From: a virus
Lineage: Duplodnaviria; Heunggongvirae; Uroviricota; Caudoviricetes
Virus record (IMG/VR): IMGVR_UViG_2521172734_000003
Direction: 5' to 3' (one strand)
Length of the DNA: 34,016 nucleotides
The position numbers were made by a program, and so were the translations under genes. Under the pieces are notes generated by a model. It made no database searches and was not told where the DNA came from. It saw only the letters and a program-made list of their open reading frames with translations. Of the stretch, positions 6,372 through 21,205 are shown piece after piece. How positions within the stretch are numbered: position 1 is the first letter of the stretch; each line of letters begins with the position of its first letter.

Positions 6372-6793
6372 AAATCAAGCATGAACACATCCGCATGGCG
6401 ATGAATGCCTGGGCGCATCCGGACGGCGAAAAAGTACCGGCTGCGAAAATTACCAAAGCGTATTTCGAGCTGGGAATGACGTTCCCGGAACTGTATGACG
6501 ACAGCCATCCGGAAGCCCTGGCCCGTAATACCCAGAAAATTTTCCGCTGGGTGGAGAAGGACACCCCTGATGCTGTTGAAAAAATTCAGGCGCTGTTACC
6601 GGCGATCGAAAAGGCGATGCCGCCTTTGCTGGTGGCCCGTATGCGCAGCCACAGTTCTGAATATTACCGTGAGATCGTCGAACGGAGGGATCGGCTGGTG
6701 AAGGATGTCGATGATTTTGTTGCGTCAGCGGTTGTTTTGTATGACCAGATGAATCGCGGCGGCCCGGCAGGGAATGCTGTGGTGATGCACTAA
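6368..6793 (+). CDS. YdaT-like protein in the cII position (141 aa)
   Basis: Size and position match the Rac racR / ydaS-ydaT arrangement; family assignment is from position and size only. Confidence 0.5.
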   Translation: MKIKHEHIRMAMNAWAHPDGEKVPAAKITKAYFELGMTFPELYDDSHPEALARNTQKIFRWVEKDTPDAVEKIQALLPAIEKAMPPLLVARMRSHSSEYYREIVERRDRLVKDVDDFVASAVVLYDQMNRGGPAGNAVVMH

Positions 6794-13309: not shown

Positions 13310-14127
13310 AACTGGAAGATTTACCGAAATACTACTCCCCAAAATCCCCTGGTCTGACCGATGCATCGGCCTCAACGTCAAAAGATGCGCTGAGTATCAC
13401 TGATGTGATGGCCGCGCAGGGCATGACACAGAATCGGGCTGAGATGGGTTTTTCTGCGTTCCTGGGGAAAATGGGCATCAGTATGAATGACAGGGCGCGG
13501 GCAACAGAATTACTGGCAGATTATGCACTCAGTCGGTGCGATCGTGTGGCGGCGTTGAGAAAACTTCCGGCAGAAATAAAACCGGTAGTGATGCGCATTA
13601 TGGCTTCGTACGCTTTTGAGGATTATGCCCGCAGCGCAGCGAGTAAAAAGCAGTGCCCCTGTTGCCGAGGGGAAAAATTTATTGAAGGCGAAGTTTTTAC
13701 AAACAAGGTTCAGTATCCGGATGGCAAGCCGCCAGTATGGGCAAAGTGTACGAAAGGTGTGTATCCGTCTTACTGGGAAGAATGGAAAAAAATTCGGGAG
13801 GTGGTGAAAGTTTCTTGTCCTGAATGTAAAGGGAAGGGGGAGATTTCCACTGCCTGTAAAGACTGCCGTGGGCGTGGTGTTGCCATTCATCGTGAAGAGT
13901 CGGTAAAACGTGGTATGCCTGTTATCAGAGACTGCCAGCGTTGTGGTGGTCGTGGCTGTGAAAGACTACCATCAACGGAGGCATTTAATGCCATACGCAA
14001 AGTGACGAGTGCTATCACGCTTGATACGTGGAAAAAATCAGTGAAACGCTTTTACGATACGTTGGTGGTTCGGTTTGACATTGAAGAGGCATGGGCGGAG
14101 CGGCAGTTAAAGAGGGTAACGCGATAG
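13306..14127 (+). CDS. Late-gene antiterminator Q-like protein with four CxxC zinc-binding pairs
   Basis: 273 aa; CPCC, CPEC, CKDC, CQRC clusters; immediately upstream of a lambda-PR'-like promoter. Confidence 0.7.
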   Translation: MKLEDLPKYYSPKSPGLTDASASTSKDALSITDVMAAQGMTQNRAEMGFSAFLGKMGISMNDRARATELLADYALSRCDRVAALRKLPAEIKPVVMRIMASYAFEDYARSAASKKQCPCCRGEKFIEGEVFTNKVQYPDGKPPVWAKCTKGVYPSYWEEWKKIREVVKVSCPECKGKGEISTACKDCRGRGVAIHREESVKRGMPVIRDCQRCGGRGCERLPSTEAFNAIRKVTSAITLDTWKKSVKRFYDTLVVRFDIEEAWAERQLKRVTR

Positions 14128-15801: not shown

Positions 15802-15877
15802 GGCCCTTTAGCTCAGTGGTGAGAGCGAGCGACTCATAATCGCCAGGTCGCTGGTTCAAATCCAGCAAGGGCCACCA
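15802..15877 (+). tRNA. tRNA, anticodon CAT (Ile2/lysidine-type, ileZ-like; Met not excluded)
   Basis: Hand-folded cloverleaf: acceptor GGCCCTT/AAGGGCC, D-arm GCTC-AGTGGTGA-GAGC, anticodon loop CTCATAA, T-arm GCTGG-TTCAAAT-CCAGC, 3' CCA encoded. Confidence 0.8.
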
Positions 15878-15884
15878 TCACATA

Positions 15885-15961
15885 CCGCCATTAGCTCATC
15901 AGGAAAGAGCGCCAGCCTTCGAAGCTGGCTGCGCGGGGTTCAAGTCCCCGATGGCGGTCCA
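15885..15961 (+). tRNA. tRNA-Arg, anticodon TCG (argN-like)
   Basis: Acceptor CCGCCAT/ATGGCGG, anticodon stem CCAGC/GCTGG with loop CTTCGAA, T-arm CGGGG-TTCAAGT-CCCCG, CCA encoded. Confidence 0.75.
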
Positions 15962-15974
15962 TTATCTGCATCAT

Positions 15975-16051
15975 GCGTTGTTAGCTCAGCCGGACAGAGC
16001 AATTGCCTTCTAAGCAATCGGTCACTGGTTCGAATCCAGTACAACGCGCCA
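15975..16051 (+). tRNA. tRNA-Arg, anticodon TCT (argO/argU-like)
   Basis: Acceptor GCGTTGT/ACAACGC, D-arm GCTCAGCCGGACAGAGC, anticodon loop CTTCTAA, T-arm CTGG-TTCGAAT-CCAG, CCA encoded; closely resembles recalled argU. Confidence 0.85.
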
Positions 16052-16065
16052 CACTTATTTTCCCT

Positions 16066-16091
16066 GGCTCGCTTTTGCGGGCCTTTTTTTT
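16066..16091 (+). terminator. Rho-independent terminator after the tRNA cluster
   Basis: GGCTCGC-TTTT-GCGGGCC (one mismatch) followed by TTTTTTTT. Confidence 0.6.
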
Positions 16092-16539
16092 AAATGTCTC
16101 ACAATTCAGACGGTTGACAGTTGTCTGGTTTGCGGGGAGTTTGTTAAAAGAAACTGGCATGGTGAATCCCCCTGTGCGGAGGGGCAATCAGCGAGTAGGT
16201 ATATGGGATAATCGCGGATTCAGGTGCTGGTACTGAATTCACCGGGAGGCACCCGGCACCATGCAATGGCACATAGCGCCACTCTCCAGCCCCTCTCCGG
16301 AGGGGCTTTCTTATGGACAAAAAAATCCCGCGCAGGGAGACGCGGGCGGCAAGGAATAAACAACAAAACGTGAAGTAATATTTCAGCTGGCGAATAATAT
16401 CCGACAGTAATCACTCTGCGCAATAGCGCGGCCTTTTCGTATTGCGGGCTATTGTCTCTCTTCTGCCATTGTCCTGTAGCTTCCGGACTTCAGCCCGCTC
16501 CTCATTTTACTCACAATATTATCCCGGCCGGGAGGATTC

Positions 16540-18402
16540 ATGGCATTTAAACACTATGATGTTGTCAGGGCGGTATCGCCGTCAGACCTTGCTGATGCAC
16601 TTGCTCAAAAAATTCGTGAAGGATGGCAACCATACGGCGGGCCGTTTTCTTCGTATACGGATGATGGCGCAGCACTTATTCAGGCGATTGTCGCAGAAGG
16701 TGATGTGGTCGTCAGTGGTGCAACTGAGCCGGAGTGGTACTACGTCATCGTACTGGCCGGGCAGTCTAATGCCATGGCTTACGGTGAAGGGCTTCCGCTT
16801 CCGGATTCATACGATGCGCCCCATCCGCGCATTAAGCAACTGGCCCGTCGTAACACAGTAACTCCCGGTGGTGAAGTATGCGTATTTAACGACATCATTC
16901 CTGCTGACCATTGTCTGCATGATGTTCAGGATATGAGTACGATTAACCATCCCCGGGCTGACCTGAGCAAAGGGCAGTACGGCTGTGTCGGACAGGGCTT
17001 ACATATTGCCAAAAAACTGCTTCCGTATATCCCTAATAATGCGGGGATCCTGCTGGTACCATGCTGTCGTGGTGGTTCGGCATTCACCCAGGGCACGGAG
17101 GGGACATTCAGCGAGTCCACGGGGGCCAGTCAGGATTCGGCTCGCTGGGGAGTGGGTAAGCCGTTATATCAGGATCTGCTTTTCCGCACGAAGGCAGCAT
17201 TGCAGAAAAACCCGAAAAACGTTTTGCTGGCGATATGCTGGATGCAGGGGGAATTCGATATGAAGAATGCCAGTTACGCCCAGCAGCCAGCAGCATTTCT
17301 TGCAATGGTACAGCAGTTCCGTGCTGACCTTGCCGGGCTGGCGGCGCAGTGTCACGGTGGAAGTCCGGCATCAGTCCCCTGGATTTGTGGCGACACGACA
17401 TACGCGTGGAAACAAGAACACGGTACACAATATGAAGTGGTATATGGTGCATATAAAGGTAAAGAATCCCAGCAGATTTATTTTGTTCCCTTTATGACCG
17501 ATGGTAGCGGAGTTAATACACCGACAAACAACCCGTCAGAAGATCCTGATATTGCCGGGTCTGGTTATTACGGTTCGGCATCCCGAACGAACAAAAACTG
17601 GGTATCATCAAATCGCCCGACGCATTTCAGCTCATGGGCGCGTCGTGGCATTATTCCCGATCGTATGGCAACTGCTATTCTGAACGTAGCCGGTCGCACC
17701 TTAGCCTTCATTAGTGGTAAGGCACCGGAAATCAAACCCTCGCCCGGCGGCGACACGCCATCGGGGCCGTCTGAAGATGCATCCGTACGCACAATCTCCC
17801 TGTTGCCGACAGCCGGAGATGCTGCTGCGCAGGGCTGGAGCATTAAGAATGGCGGAATTCAGTTGTCAGATGGTGTATTTAAGATCACCAAGCAGAGCAA
17901 TAAAGCCTGGTCCCTGACGCGCCCGGTGGATGACGCAGTCTCCCTGCTGACACGGGGTGGCAGACTGAGCTGTAAGTTTCGACTGTCAGGCGCACTGACC
18001 AACAACCAGTTCGGTCTGGGAATTTATCTGTATACCGATGTAGCGTTACCTGACGTCGTGGCGATGACCGGGACTGGTAACCCGTTCCTGATGTCGTTCT
18101 TCACCCAGACCACAGACGGCAAACTGAATCTGATGCATCACAAGAAAGCCGGAAACACAAAGTTGGGCGAGTTCGGGAATTACAGTAACGACTGGCAGAC
18201 GCTGGAGCTGGTGTTCACCGCCGGCAGTGCCACGGTTACTCCGAAACTGAATGGAGTGGCTGGCCCGGCATTCCAGGTCATAAAAGACAGTCTGACAGTG
18301 GGACTAAATGCACTGACGCTGACGGATATTACCAAAAATGCAGCGTATGGCGTTGAGATAGAAAGTCTGGTGCTGGAGATAAATGCACCGGCATCATCAT
18401 AA
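16540..18402 (+). CDS. nanS-p: Prophage-encoded sialate 9-O-acetylesterase NanS-p (N-terminal DUF1737 plus SGNH/SASA esterase domain)
   Basis: 620 aa; starts [12 protein letters not shown]; GQSNAMAYG catalytic-serine motif; GGGAGG SD; located between tRNAs and lysis genes as in Stx-phage late regions. Confidence 0.8.
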
Positions 18403-18551
18403 AAAGTGAGCCAGTCAAATGGAAGGTATCGTTAAACTCACCGGTAGTGTCAGTGGGTCGTCTGAGACGCCTGCATGAGTTATCAGAGCCATCAGTACTT
18501 AACTGGTGGCTTTTTTATTGTTGTCAGCTTCCGGATAACGGGAGACGGGGT

Positions 18552-18767
18552 ATGTACCAGATGGAAAAAATCACAACAGGTGTGTCATACACCACGTCAG
18601 CGGTGGGAACGGGCTACTGGTTCCTGCAGTTGCTGGACAGGGTTTCCCCGTCTCAGTGGGCGGCAATAGGCGTGCTGGGGAGTCTGCTGTTTGGGCTGCT
18701 GACATATCTGACTAACCTGTATTTCAAAATCAGAGAGGACCGTCGTAAGGCGGCGCGGGGGGAGTAA
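18552..18767 (+). CDS. S: Class II holin / pinholin (S21-like) with dual-start motif MYQM (antiholin from 18552, holin from 18561)
   Basis: 71-aa product [71 protein letters not shown] matches the recalled S21 family; pairs with a SAR endolysin. Confidence 0.85.
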
Positions 18768-18771
18768 AGCG

Positions 18772-19578
18772 ATGAAGAAAAAATACGAACTGGGTGTTAA
18801 AGGGATAAATAATTATCCGGATAAGATTACTGTTACTGTGGCACTGGAAATTGGTGGGTATCCGTCACTGTTGTTGCCAGATGTGGCGATTAGTCTTGAC
18901 CGTACTGAAGGTGCCACGCTGGAGTTTTACGAAGCTGAGGCGAAAAAGCAGGCGAAGCAGTTTTTCATGGATGTTGCTGCCGGGTTATGTGAAGGGAACG
19001 AACCGTTGCCGGAAAAGCGCCCCATAATTTTAGAGGCGCAGGATGTGTTGATAACCTACAAAGGAAAGCTACCGGGAAGAATTACTGGTTCTCTGAAGAT
19101 GCCGCCGTCAACACTGCGGTCAGAAAAAGAGGCGTCTTGTCTGCAGTCTGAGTACTCCATTACGGTTAAAAGTGCCGGAGAGGAAGGAAATAAACGTTAT
19201 TTTATTGCGTCTGCACCTGATAAAGATCAGGAATGGGAGTGTAACCGGCCATCCTTTGTTGTATACGGAGATGGCGGGAAAATAACCATCTCAGAAAATG
19301 GGAAATTAACACCGCCATCGCACCAGCATAGTGAGGCGCTCATTGAATTTGCCATTGATTACCTGAAGAACAATAAAAAGCAGGGGCTGATGAAGCGCAT
19401 TGGTCGTTGCATGGGATATCTGCAGGTAGCAGCTGAGATTGAAATGATGGCCAGTGGTGCTGACAATGATGCAGTTGTGCTGGAGGCTCTTCTGCGTGAT
19501 TTTGATAATACGCCCTTTAAGAAAGCACCTGTTGACTGGATGCAGCCGGGGATGACTTATCTGAAAGGGCGTATATAA
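18772..19578 (+). CDS. Hypothetical soluble protein (268 aa) inserted between holin and endolysin
   Basis: ORF starting 5 nt after the holin stop; no TM segment, no motif I recognise. Confidence 0.6.
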   Translation: MKKKYELGVKGINNYPDKITVTVALEIGGYPSLLLPDVAISLDRTEGATLEFYEAEAKKQAKQFFMDVAAGLCEGNEPLPEKRPIILEAQDVLITYKGKLPGRITGSLKMPPSTLRSEKEASCLQSEYSITVKSAGEEGNKRYFIASAPDKDQEWECNRPSFVVYGDGGKITISENGKLTPPSHQHSEALIEFAIDYLKNNKKQGLMKRIGRCMGYLQVAAEIEMMASGADNDAVVLEALLRDFDNTPFKKAPVDWMQPGMTYLKGRI

Positions 19579-19587
19579 GGTGGCTCG

Positions 19588-19902
19588 TTATCTGTTGCTG
19601 GATAATCGACTGAAGATGCGTTCTTTTTGTGTTTTTGCGTAATGATTGTCCCACTCACAATCAAGGTAGCTTAATTCTTCATTCAACCAGTTATTTATAT
19701 TGGTCTTAATACGCATAAGCATGGGCTGTGTTAATGCTCTGGCGATAATGCCGAGAGTCACAGGTGTGAGATGTCCATACGGCTCAGCCTGAATGGATTT
19801 TACTGCATCGTGTTCTTGTGGGAGGAGTAAGAGGCACTCTGATTTTACCCGCTCATTTATGGCTTGCAGGCATAAATCATAATTATGTTGATCGTTATGC
19901 AT
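19588..19902 (-). CDS. Hypothetical protein (104 aa), convergent with the 268-aa gene, own upstream region
   Basis: Minus-strand ORF with GAGGA SD; 24-bp inverted repeat CTGAAATtgtcagatatATTTCAG (19916-19939) immediately upstream. Confidence 0.5.
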   Translation of the reverse strand: MHNDQHNYDLCLQAINERVKSECLLLLPQEHDAVKSIQAEPYGHLTPVTLGIIARALTQPMLMRIKTNINNWLNEELSYLDCEWDNHYAKTQKERIFSRLSSNR

Positions 19903-20030
19903 GGTTAATCCTCTACTGAAATTGTCAGATATATTTCAGCCATCAGGAAAAACGCCAGTGTCCTACCGCTGGCGGGCTGAAGATTTAACATATCCAGGGA
20001 TTCGGAACCGATAAATCCTGATAAATATCC

Positions 20031-20564
20031 ATGAACACCAAAATCAAATATGGCCTGTCGGCTGCCGTTCTGGCGTTGATTGCCATCGGTGCGCCTGCGC
20101 CTGATATTCTCGACCAGTTTCTGGATGAAAAAGAAGGTAACCACACAACGGCATACCGTGATGGTGCGGGTATCTGGACCATCTGCCGCGGTGCCACAAT
20201 GGTGGATGGTAAACCTGTTATTCCGGGCATGAAACTGTCGAAGGAAAAATGCGACCAGGTTAATGCCATTGAACGGGATAAGGCGCTGGCATGGGTGGAG
20301 CGCAATATTAAAGTTCCACTGACCGAACCACAGAAAGCGGGTATAGCGTCATTCTGTCCCTATAACATTGGCCCCGGTAAGTGTTTCCCGTCGACGTTTT
20401 ATAAGCGGCTGAATGCTGGTGACCGCAGGGGAGCGTGTGAGGCGATTCGCTGGTGGATTAAGGACGGTGGCAGAGACTGCCGTATCCGCTCAAATAACTG
20501 TTATGGTCAGGTATCCCGTCGTGACCAGGAGAGCGCGCTGGCGTGCTGGGGAATCGACAGATAA
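20031..20564 (+). CDS. R: SAR endolysin, T4-lysozyme-like muramidase (GH24) with N-terminal signal-anchor-release domain
   Basis: N-terminal KYGLSAAVLALIAIGAPA weakly hydrophobic segment; catalytic E-x8-D-x5-T (EGNHTTAYRDGAGIWTICRG); resembles recalled R21/P1 Lyz. Confidence 0.85.
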   Translation: MNTKIKYGLSAAVLALIAIGAPAPDILDQFLDEKEGNHTTAYRDGAGIWTICRGATMVDGKPVIPGMKLSKEKCDQVNAIERDKALAWVERNIKVPLTEPQKAGIASFCPYNIGPGKCFPSTFYKRLNAGDRRGACEAIRWWIKDGGRDCRIRSNNCYGQVSRRDQESALACWGIDR

Positions 20565-20658
20565 GCAGAATATTTTGCTGAAAAATAAGGCATGGCCACG
20601 CGGGCGGATAACACGAAATCCTGCGAACTGGCGAAACGTAAGTGAATAAAAGTAAAAA

Positions 20659-20693
20659 CCCCGTTTGTTGGCAGCAAGCGGGGTTTTGTTTTT
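20659..20693 (+). terminator. Terminator-like hairpin downstream of R
   Basis: CCCCG-(15 nt)-CGGGG followed by TTTTGTTTTT; long loop, so strength uncertain. Confidence 0.45.
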
Positions 20694-20719
20694 ATGGCAG
20701 TAAGCTATGGGAGGCTGCC

Positions 20720-20854
20720 TTGATTGATTTTAGCAAACTGATTAGGGAGTTGCGACTCATGATTAGTCAATTACCAAACTGGAAATTTTTGCTGGTCTGG
20801 AGCATCCCTTTTTTATGGGTAGTATCCCAGTTAATTGTGGCAATTAAGGGGTAG
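20720..20854 (+). CDS. Small hydrophobic ORF 1 (44 aa from TTG 20720, or 31 aa from ATG 20759): ...MISQLPNWKFLLVWSIPFLWVVSQLIVAIKG
   Basis: GGGAGG SD 5 nt upstream of TTG; one predicted TM helix. Confidence 0.4.
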   Translation: MIDFSKLIRELRLMISQLPNWKFLLVWSIPFLWVVSQLIVAIKG

Positions 20855-20856
20855 CT

Positions 20857-20988
20857 ATGTCAGACAAACTCATAACGCCGGCAAAGGTCCTGTGTGTGAT
20901 TGTCGGTATTTCATTTTCACTAATGCTGGTTGCTCTTTTTCTGTCCCTCGCCTGGGTGATGTTGTCTTCGTCGGGGCTGCTGGGGTGA
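20857..20988 (+). CDS. Small hydrophobic ORF 2 (43 aa) MSDKLITPAKVLCVIVGISFSLMLVALFLSLAWVMLSSSGLLG
   Basis: AAGGGG SD 6 nt upstream of ATG; starts 3 nt after ORF 1 stop; one TM helix. Confidence 0.45.
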   Translation: MSDKLITPAKVLCVIVGISFSLMLVALFLSLAWVMLSSSGLLG

Positions 20989-20990
20989 CA

Positions 20991-21107
20991 GTGACTGATG
21001 ACATCAGCAGAGCGCTGGCTTTTGCTATTAAGTGGGTGGCTGTTGGTATTGCTGTGTCTCCGATGCTATATGGGCTGGCAAAACTGGTCATTGCGCTGAA
21101 ATCGTGA
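20991..21107 (+). CDS. Small hydrophobic ORF 3 (about 38 aa, GTG start) ...ISRALAFAIKWVAVGIAVSPMLYGLAKLVIALKS
   Basis: GTG 3 nt after ORF 2 stop; one TM helix; start codon uncertain. Confidence 0.35.
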   Translation: MTDDISRALAFAIKWVAVGIAVSPMLYGLAKLVIALKS

Positions 21108-21118
21108 ACTTTAAAAAG

Positions 21119-21205
21119 ATGAGTGCTGAACTTATTCGGGCAATGGCATTTGCCATTCGTATTGTGGCCATTGCTGTTCTGGTCTGGGCAATCCGTTGGT
21201 GGTGA
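21119..21205 (+). CDS. Small hydrophobic ORF 4 (28 aa) [28 protein letters not shown]
   Basis: Stop TGA ends 1 nt before the Rz ATG; poor SD, so least certain of the four. Confidence 0.3.

Follow-up and report, generated by a model that had tools for sequence, protein, structure and literature searches.

The window analysed here is the whole of a 34,016-nucleotide stretch of DNA from a tailed bacteriophage (Caudoviricetes; IMG/VR record IMGVR_UViG_2521172734_000003). It is a stx-negative lambdoid prophage of Escherichia coli that resembles the Shiga toxin (Stx) phages, and the locus in question is the slot between its holin gene S and its lysozyme gene R. Read off the list of open reading frames (ORFs) and the raw sequence, the slot has the order S (+), a 268-aa ORF (+), a 104-aa ORF (-) and R (+); both inner ORFs are the longest possible at their sites and start with ATG. 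An earlier note on this DNA had placed the same two ORFs, in these positions and orientations, between a pinholin and an endolysin of the signal-anchor-release (SAR) type, and had called the 268-aa product soluble. The ORF list and the sequence agree with that layout, and transmembrane (TM) segments, as predicted from sequence, are absent from the 268-aa protein and from the 104-aa protein as well. The note had further read the two genes as a two-gene insert, a cargo pair, and this does not stand, because the genes assort independently. As set out below, the 268-aa gene and the 104-aa gene are not a two-gene unit but are inherited independently, and the locus is a typical mosaic accessory slot in which nothing points to a defence system.

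The borders of the slot are those of a P21-type pinholin/SAR-endolysin cassette (Table 1). The holin S carries the MYQM dual-start motif, and R has at its N-terminus a weakly hydrophobic SAR-like segment (KD19 peak of 1.88 at residue 9; residues 9-27) as well as the E-8-D-5-T catalytic motif, EGNHTTAYRDGAGIWT; Pfam places Rz in an ORF downstream of R. The inner genes are lower in GC (46.3% for the 268-aa gene, 41.0% for the 104-aa gene) than S (54.6%) and R (53.0%). The convergent stops of the two inner genes are 9 nt apart, and 452 nt with the convergent gene intervene between the stop of the 268-aa gene and R.

Table 1. Features of the S-R slot, in window coordinates except in the last row, where the L numbers denote comparison loci.
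Feature	Position	Strand	Remarks
S21-type class II holin S (pinholin type), left slot border	18552..18767	+	71 aa; PF04971, E 9e-33; phrog_9876/phrog_20 holin
268-aa gene	18772..19578	+	ATG; GGAG Shine-Dalgarno 7 nt before ATG; starts 4 nt past holin stop
Module M1 of 268-aa gene (aa 1-118)	18772..19125	+	DUF1327/YdfR core, aa 1-~75, fold beta3-alpha, plus conserved extension
Linker and short module M4 (aa 119-153)	19126..19230	+	'YSITVKSAGEEGNKRYFIASAPDKDQ'; predicted disordered; recombination zone of the mosaic family
Module M5 (aa 154-268 and stop)	19231..19578	+	Conserved orphan C-terminal domain; three short strands, three helices
104-aa gene (WP_000551290.1; phrog_1853)	19588..19902	-	ATG; predicted soluble five-helix bundle; convergent with 268-aa gene, divergent from R
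Divergent intergenic region	19903..20030		Between 104-aa gene and R; holds the four minus-strand features that follow
Shine-Dalgarno GAGGA of 104-aa gene	19909-19913	-	6 nt before ATG
Inverted repeat	19916-19939	-	7-bp arms, 10-nt loop
Hairpin CGCCAG-N10-CTGGCG, then UUUUU	19948-19974	-	Between promoter-like site and Shine-Dalgarno of 104-aa gene
Weak promoter-like TTTATC-17-TATGTT	20015-19987	-	7/12 sigma-70 match
SAR-type lysozyme R, right slot border	20031..20564	+	177 aa; PF00959, E 2.8e-25; phrog_7 endolysin
Pseudogene calls of the Prokaryotic Genome Annotation Pipeline (PGAP)	L001 6326-6661; L027 and L028 685-1020		NZ_CP128912, NC_011748, NZ_HF572917; M5-coding part left without annotation

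The earlier note had recognised no motif in either protein, which is not so for the 268-aa protein: its residues 1-100 match PF07041 (DUF1327/YdfR) at 148.3 bits against a cutoff of 25 (E 7e-44), thereby passing the Pfam gathering score, and over its full length it matches phrog_1085 (E 9e-160). Its first 77 residues share 45% identity with E. coli K-12 YdfR. The gene is also found in the position characteristic of the family, co-oriented between a class II holin and a lysozyme, and the same holin-YdfR-lysozyme layout is present in K-12 Qin, in BP-4795 and in Stx1a/Stx2c phages. In size it departs from the small single-domain proteins (~100-115 aa) of the family and falls within a long mosaic subset, phrog_1085. 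The sequence places the 268-aa gene in the YdfR/DUF1327 family, as one of its long mosaic members.

The mosaic nature of the family is evident from a homology search with the 268-aa protein, which returned 226 relatives of 103-333 aa; their alignment resolves into M1, optional coiled-coil or linker modules, M4 and M5, with modules gained or missing between members. Proteins of 185-217 aa encoded directly after S (TW14359, Stx2_12E129) contain M5 but no DUF1327. Across the IMG/VR loci the identity of M1 ranges from 64 to 100%, whereas M5 and the 104-aa gene remain at 100%, which shows recombination inside the 268-aa gene. The AlphaFold2 (AF2) model has ordered parts at residues 1-69 (three strands and a helix, predicted local distance difference test (pLDDT) score 66-87) and 158-230, and the stretch 70-157 is disordered (pLDDT 21-33). 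For M5, the ratio of nonsynonymous to synonymous substitution rates (dN/dS) is 0.29-0.36 against six relatives; Pfam, PDB-sequence and fold searches with this module returned nothing, and PADLOC and NCBIfam searches were empty. Foldseek gave weak matches resembling double-stranded RNA-binding domains (E 0.75), which are not significant, and which would be compatible with docking on RNA or RNase E.

In TUM13773, 55989 and HUSEC2011, PGAP annotates only the first 336 nt (112 codons) of this gene, as 'YdfR family protein, incomplete, missing C-terminus'. We regard the RefSeq label as an annotation artefact, because M5 is under purifying selection and the ORF is intact over 268 codons. A 268-aa protein of 98% identity belongs to a 90%-identity cluster of 584 member sequences.

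The 104-aa ORF is a real gene under purifying selection. For its product, phrog_1853 is the sole family match (E 8e-50), there is no match in Pfam, NCBIfam or PADLOC, and PDB sequence and profile searches gave nothing significant. Both phrog_1853 and phrog_1085 are labelled 'unknown function' and are sequence clusters without functional or structural annotation. A HMMER scan of 1.8 billion representatives, together with a profile search, yielded full-length homologs of the 104-aa protein down to ~28-43% identity, and the family has in common the signature W-NEELSYLDC-WD-Y-QK-R-F. Pairwise dN/dS within it is 0.14-0.49 where dS is measurable, the sole exception being a near-identical pair with too few changes. 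AF2 predicts a confident five-helix bundle (pLDDT 89.9, predicted template modelling score 0.83), and searches with this predicted fold found no informative structural relative.

Distant homologs of 31-37% identity (L024 980-1297, L025 3001-3300 and L026 980-1279) reside on conjugative-element-like E. coli DNA, where the neighbours include TraG_N, a ribosomal L31 paralogue and an integrase and are otherwise unrelated; the 217-aa protein that precedes the homolog in L024 was considered as an M5 relative and rejected, being an unrelated membrane protein. Membership of the 104 family is likewise unsupported for the 90-aa ORF of NCTC86 and for the 86-aa 'DUF1823' ORF of PhiR5_1, at 19-22% identity. 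In other cassettes the spot next to R holds small minus-strand ORFs of 90 aa (L006 937-1209) and 86 aa (L005 1171-1431). The presence at one spot of different minus-strand ORFs, with only ~20% identity to the 104-aa protein, suggests repeated capture of small antisense genes.

The question of whether the two genes travel together could be addressed by counting them in 5,426 complete E. coli genomes. The S21-type holin is found at 13,375 places (4,273 genomes), the DUF1327 core at 6,717 (3,158 genomes), M5 at 970 (787 genomes) and the close clade of the 104-aa gene at 132 (95 genomes), and a second clade of the 104 family, ~53% identical, of O157:H7 type and annotated as 90 aa, at 799 (674 genomes). 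The 104 family adjoins the SAR endolysin gene in ~14% of E. coli genomes. In the 434 phage records with this holin, a DUF1327 gene is present in 100, M5 in five and the 104-aa gene in four, and among GTDB species representatives there was no match to the 104 family, with M5 confined to Escherichia and Shigella. The earlier note had taken S followed directly by R as the canonical arrangement; this is accurate for the 933W-like Stx2a phages (TL-2011c, POCJ13), in which R follows S after 4 nt, but not for about half of the S21-type holin copies in E. coli chromosomes, which are accompanied by a DUF1327 gene. Two outcomes had been named in that note as speaking against its reading: YdfR-like homology was indeed found for the 268-aa protein, and the pair is not universal in the phage lineage.

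The architectures of the slot include a short YdfR gene alone, YdfR with other minus-strand ORFs, a long YdfR, and an M5 protein, which the 104-aa gene may or may not accompany. Most of the M5 carriers examined have no minus-strand gene, and R begins 36 nt past the M5 stop (TW14359, strain 222, Stx2_95). Conversely, the O157:H7-type clade of the 104 family is found without a YdfR or M5 homolog, its gene being convergent with S. Across 80 IMG/VR contigs carrying the 104 family, every fragment that includes R has the gene divergent from it, at a distance of 129-177 nt, and on the gene's other side there is an M5-type gene in ~52 and S alone, without YdfR or M5, in ~27. The small gene keeps to the end of the slot next to R. 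An identical or near-identical pair of genes is present in Stx2-converting phage 86 (orf5/orf6) and in E. coli TUM13773, 55989 and O104:H4. We found no clean insertion scar and no flanking direct repeats; all that is present is a partial duplication of the R leader (GGCTGAA-ATTTAA-ATATCC), so that the event was replacement by recombination and not clean insertion.

The O157:H7-type gene (L018 2959-3273) is found intact, with 99% identity or more, in 619 genomes; it is annotated as 90 aa, and an in-frame ATG 14 codons upstream would yield 104 aa, like its relatives. In strain 1130 (E. coli O157:H7; L029 1501-3273), IS3 truncates the holin and the adjacent 104-family gene is intact.

A further argument in the earlier note was that the minus-strand gene is probably independently regulated, for which it pointed to the 24-bp inverted repeat upstream. 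The repeat carries no weight as regulatory evidence: it has 7-bp arms, and it is at chance level because the 501 bp scanned contain five repeats of this kind. Independent regulation itself fares better, in that the gene is real, optional and probably transcribed alone. A GGATATGTTA block is conserved across the clades of the 104 family, with a perfect TATAAT nearby in the divergent clades. The hairpin with its U-run could be an attenuator or an insulator; the close clade has conserved it, its stem being longer in L003, L011 and L017, and the divergent clades lack it. A moron, in the concept of Hendrix and Juhala, is an accessory gene that has its own transcription and has been inserted between conserved genes of a phage, an example being bor of lambda. 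By that measure, the genes flanking the 104-aa gene are found next to one another in related phages (R 36 nt after an M5-type gene, or S and R 4 nt apart), and its base composition deviates from that of S and R.

Given these observations, we favour a recombinational accessory slot with two unrelated, independently inherited genes, one for a late YdfR-family protein that would bind RNase E and the other a moron-like 104-aa gene, and we consider this statement as a whole to be moderately probable. Its components taken alone, namely that the genes are real, their family membership, the mosaicism, the independent assortment and the position, can be asserted with high confidence. Since the 268-aa gene lies 4 nt after S, on the late strand and with its own Shine-Dalgarno sequence, its product and the lysis proteins would be translated from the same Q-dependent late transcript. 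The protein is probably not itself a lysis effector, because many S21-R cassettes are without it. In a bacterial two-hybrid (BACTH) assay K-12 YdfR interacts with residues 1-597 of RNase E, its own residues 1-72 being enough for this; the protein also pulls down Rne 1-598 and is co-purified with RNA (PMC13232886). By analogy, the N-domain of the 268-aa protein may dock on RNase E at its catalytic half, and possibly on RNA too. The exchangeable C-terminal module would in that case contribute a variable function, exerted in the cytoplasm at a late stage of infection; we offer this adaptor mechanism tentatively, as a possibility about which we are more doubtful than confident. The 104-aa gene would be transcribed independently, against the late transcript, and transcription in that direction would make the lysogen the most likely setting in which it is on, as for other prophage morons; we give expression in the lysogen about an even chance.

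Several observations weigh against the accessory slot as interpreted here. RNase E binding is known for the 103-aa K-12 protein only, which is 45% identical, and overexpressing that protein had little effect on the transcriptome (PMC13232886); the AF2 model of the 268-aa protein is of low overall quality (pLDDT 51.7). For the 104-aa gene, the upstream region gave no sigma-70 match of 9/12 or better and the downstream region, on the minus strand, no terminator, and the U-run hairpin sits between the sole promoter-like site and the Shine-Dalgarno sequence.

The alternative that survives best assigns the YdfR-family protein to lysis, as an accessory acting on the holin or the SAR endolysin (through timing, an antiholin-like activity or endolysin release) and not on RNase E. 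Such a role would suit the fixed site between S and R, where the gene is probably translated in tandem with S, as well as the finding that M5 and DUF1327 genes occur only in the lysis cassettes of Escherichia and Shigella; it would also suit a genetic screen that, as cited in PMC13232886, tied ydfR to envelope integrity. We nonetheless judge it unlikely, given a soluble protein with neither TM segment nor signal sequence and no homology to a known antiholin or lysis regulator, and given the many functional S21-R cassettes, those of inducible Stx2a phages included, that are entirely without a YdfR-family gene.

The cargo pair raised at the outset, in its strong form, would be one functional two-component system (toxin-antitoxin, abortive infection, exclusion or anti-defence). 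The 9 nt between the convergent stops leave the genes tightly juxtaposed, their arrangement is kept wherever both occur, both are low in GC, and the divergence of the 104-aa gene and that of M5 roughly track each other. However, M5 at 970 places far outnumbers the close 104 clade at 132, the 799 places with the O157:H7-type clade are without YdfR or M5, as are the ~27 of the 80 viral loci that carry the 104-aa gene without M5, and the distant homologs lie on conjugative-element-like DNA among unrelated neighbours; obligate co-occurrence is thus not observed. PADLOC was also negative up to an E of 1, and overexpressing K-12 YdfR (103 aa) caused no toxicity (PMC13232886). A joint system of this kind is very unlikely. 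The earlier note had, on similar lines, taken the locus for one where defence-type accessory functions reside: a genuine variable accessory slot with low-GC genes it is, but there is no sign of defence, abortive infection or exclusion, the PADLOC search being empty and K-12 YdfR non-toxic.

Equally improbable, in our view, is that the 104-aa locus acts mainly as RNA, with head-on transcription shielding the lysogen from leaky expression of the SAR endolysin and the protein being secondary. The gene is convergent with the late strand, its placement upstream of and divergent from R is invariant (129-177 nt in the 80 loci), and a family member stays intact in the decayed cassette with the IS3-truncated holin, all of which such a role could explain; it would not explain the clear purifying selection on the protein (dN/dS 0.14-0.49), its confident predicted fold or the homologs on conjugative-element-like DNA that has no lysis cassette, and a strong promoter was not detected. 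That one or both ORFs are non-functional, the 268-aa ORF being a YdfR pseudogene as in RefSeq and the 104-aa ORF a chance antisense frame, is barely credible, since the PGAP label on the first 336 nt has to be set against 268 uninterrupted codons, the 584-member cluster, an M5 that evolves at a dN/dS of ~0.3 and recurs in stand-alone proteins, and a 104 family conserved to ~30% identity with dN/dS below 0.5, a GAGGA sequence and a pLDDT of 90.

Returning to the slot with two independently inherited genes, its immediate value lies in a corrected pseudogene annotation, in the demonstration of independent assortment and in two tractable orphan modules, M5 and the 104-aa bundle. Should the proposals above hold, a late protein family with an RNase E-binding N-domain, whose C-termini are shuffled like interchangeable effectors, would provide one testable handle, and a widespread orphan 104 gene, kept intact even in decayed lysis cassettes, would provide a second. 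Both genes are found in clinically important strains (O104:H4, 55989, O157:H7, Stx phage 86). It is a speculative thought, and one we hold with little confidence, that the 104 family is a new class of lysogen-expressed factor modulating host or phage (anti-defence, exclusion or a regulator), or that YdfR proteins are adaptors docking swappable effectors such as M5 onto RNase E, or both.

The surroundings of the slot are those of an Stx-type phage. Positions 15802-16539 hold a tRNA trio of the Stx-phage type (a CAT anticodon, Arg-TCG and Arg-TCT), in which the CAT tRNA is Met according to ARAGORN and Ile according to RefSeq in the matching TUM13773 record. A nanS-p-type esterase gene (16540-18402) lies 488 bp after the trio, and the absence of stx between the two marks the window as a relative of the Stx phages that lacks stx. 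The late strand has two strong terminator-like hairpins with T-runs, one just upstream of S (18485-18513, +) and the other between R and Rz (20655-20687, +), both presumed to be read through by Q-modified polymerase. The gap between R and Rz (20565-21122) is a second variable slot, with small ORFs of ~60-70 aa and 43 aa in the window, an Ant anti-repressor in Stx2 phage 86 (L002 6060-6629) and a Panacea-domain protein in E. coli A34 (L017 2642-3028). Rfam gave zero matches across 18300-20800.

Three known systems allow comparison. Like the morons of lambda, the 104-aa gene is small, low in GC and in the opposite orientation, and its flanking genes are direct or almost direct neighbours in related phages. 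Bor of lambda is a lipoprotein whose gene follows Rz and has a demonstrated lysogen promoter; the 104-aa product, in contrast, is a predicted cytoplasmic helical bundle, a convincing promoter or terminator was not found for its gene, and its expression in the lysogen is inferred. Phage 86 (AB255436/NC_008464, gp05-gp06) has the same gene pair in the same order, with proteins 99.6% and 100% identical and S-R DNA 97.5% identical. It differs in carrying stx2 upstream and the Ant gene between R and Rz, whereas the window prophage has no stx and has other small ORFs after R. YdfR of K-12 Qin (P76160; PF07041) occupies the same slot, with a class II holin ending 4 nt ahead of it and a lysozyme following, and both proteins are soluble. 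The K-12 protein has 103 aa, whereas that of the window has 268, adding a disordered linker, M4 and M5, and K-12 ydfR overlaps the start of rrrQ where the 268-aa gene stands 452 nt and a convergent gene away from R. The conserved part that the two share is the region of YdfR reported to bind the N-terminal half of RNase E (PMC13232886).

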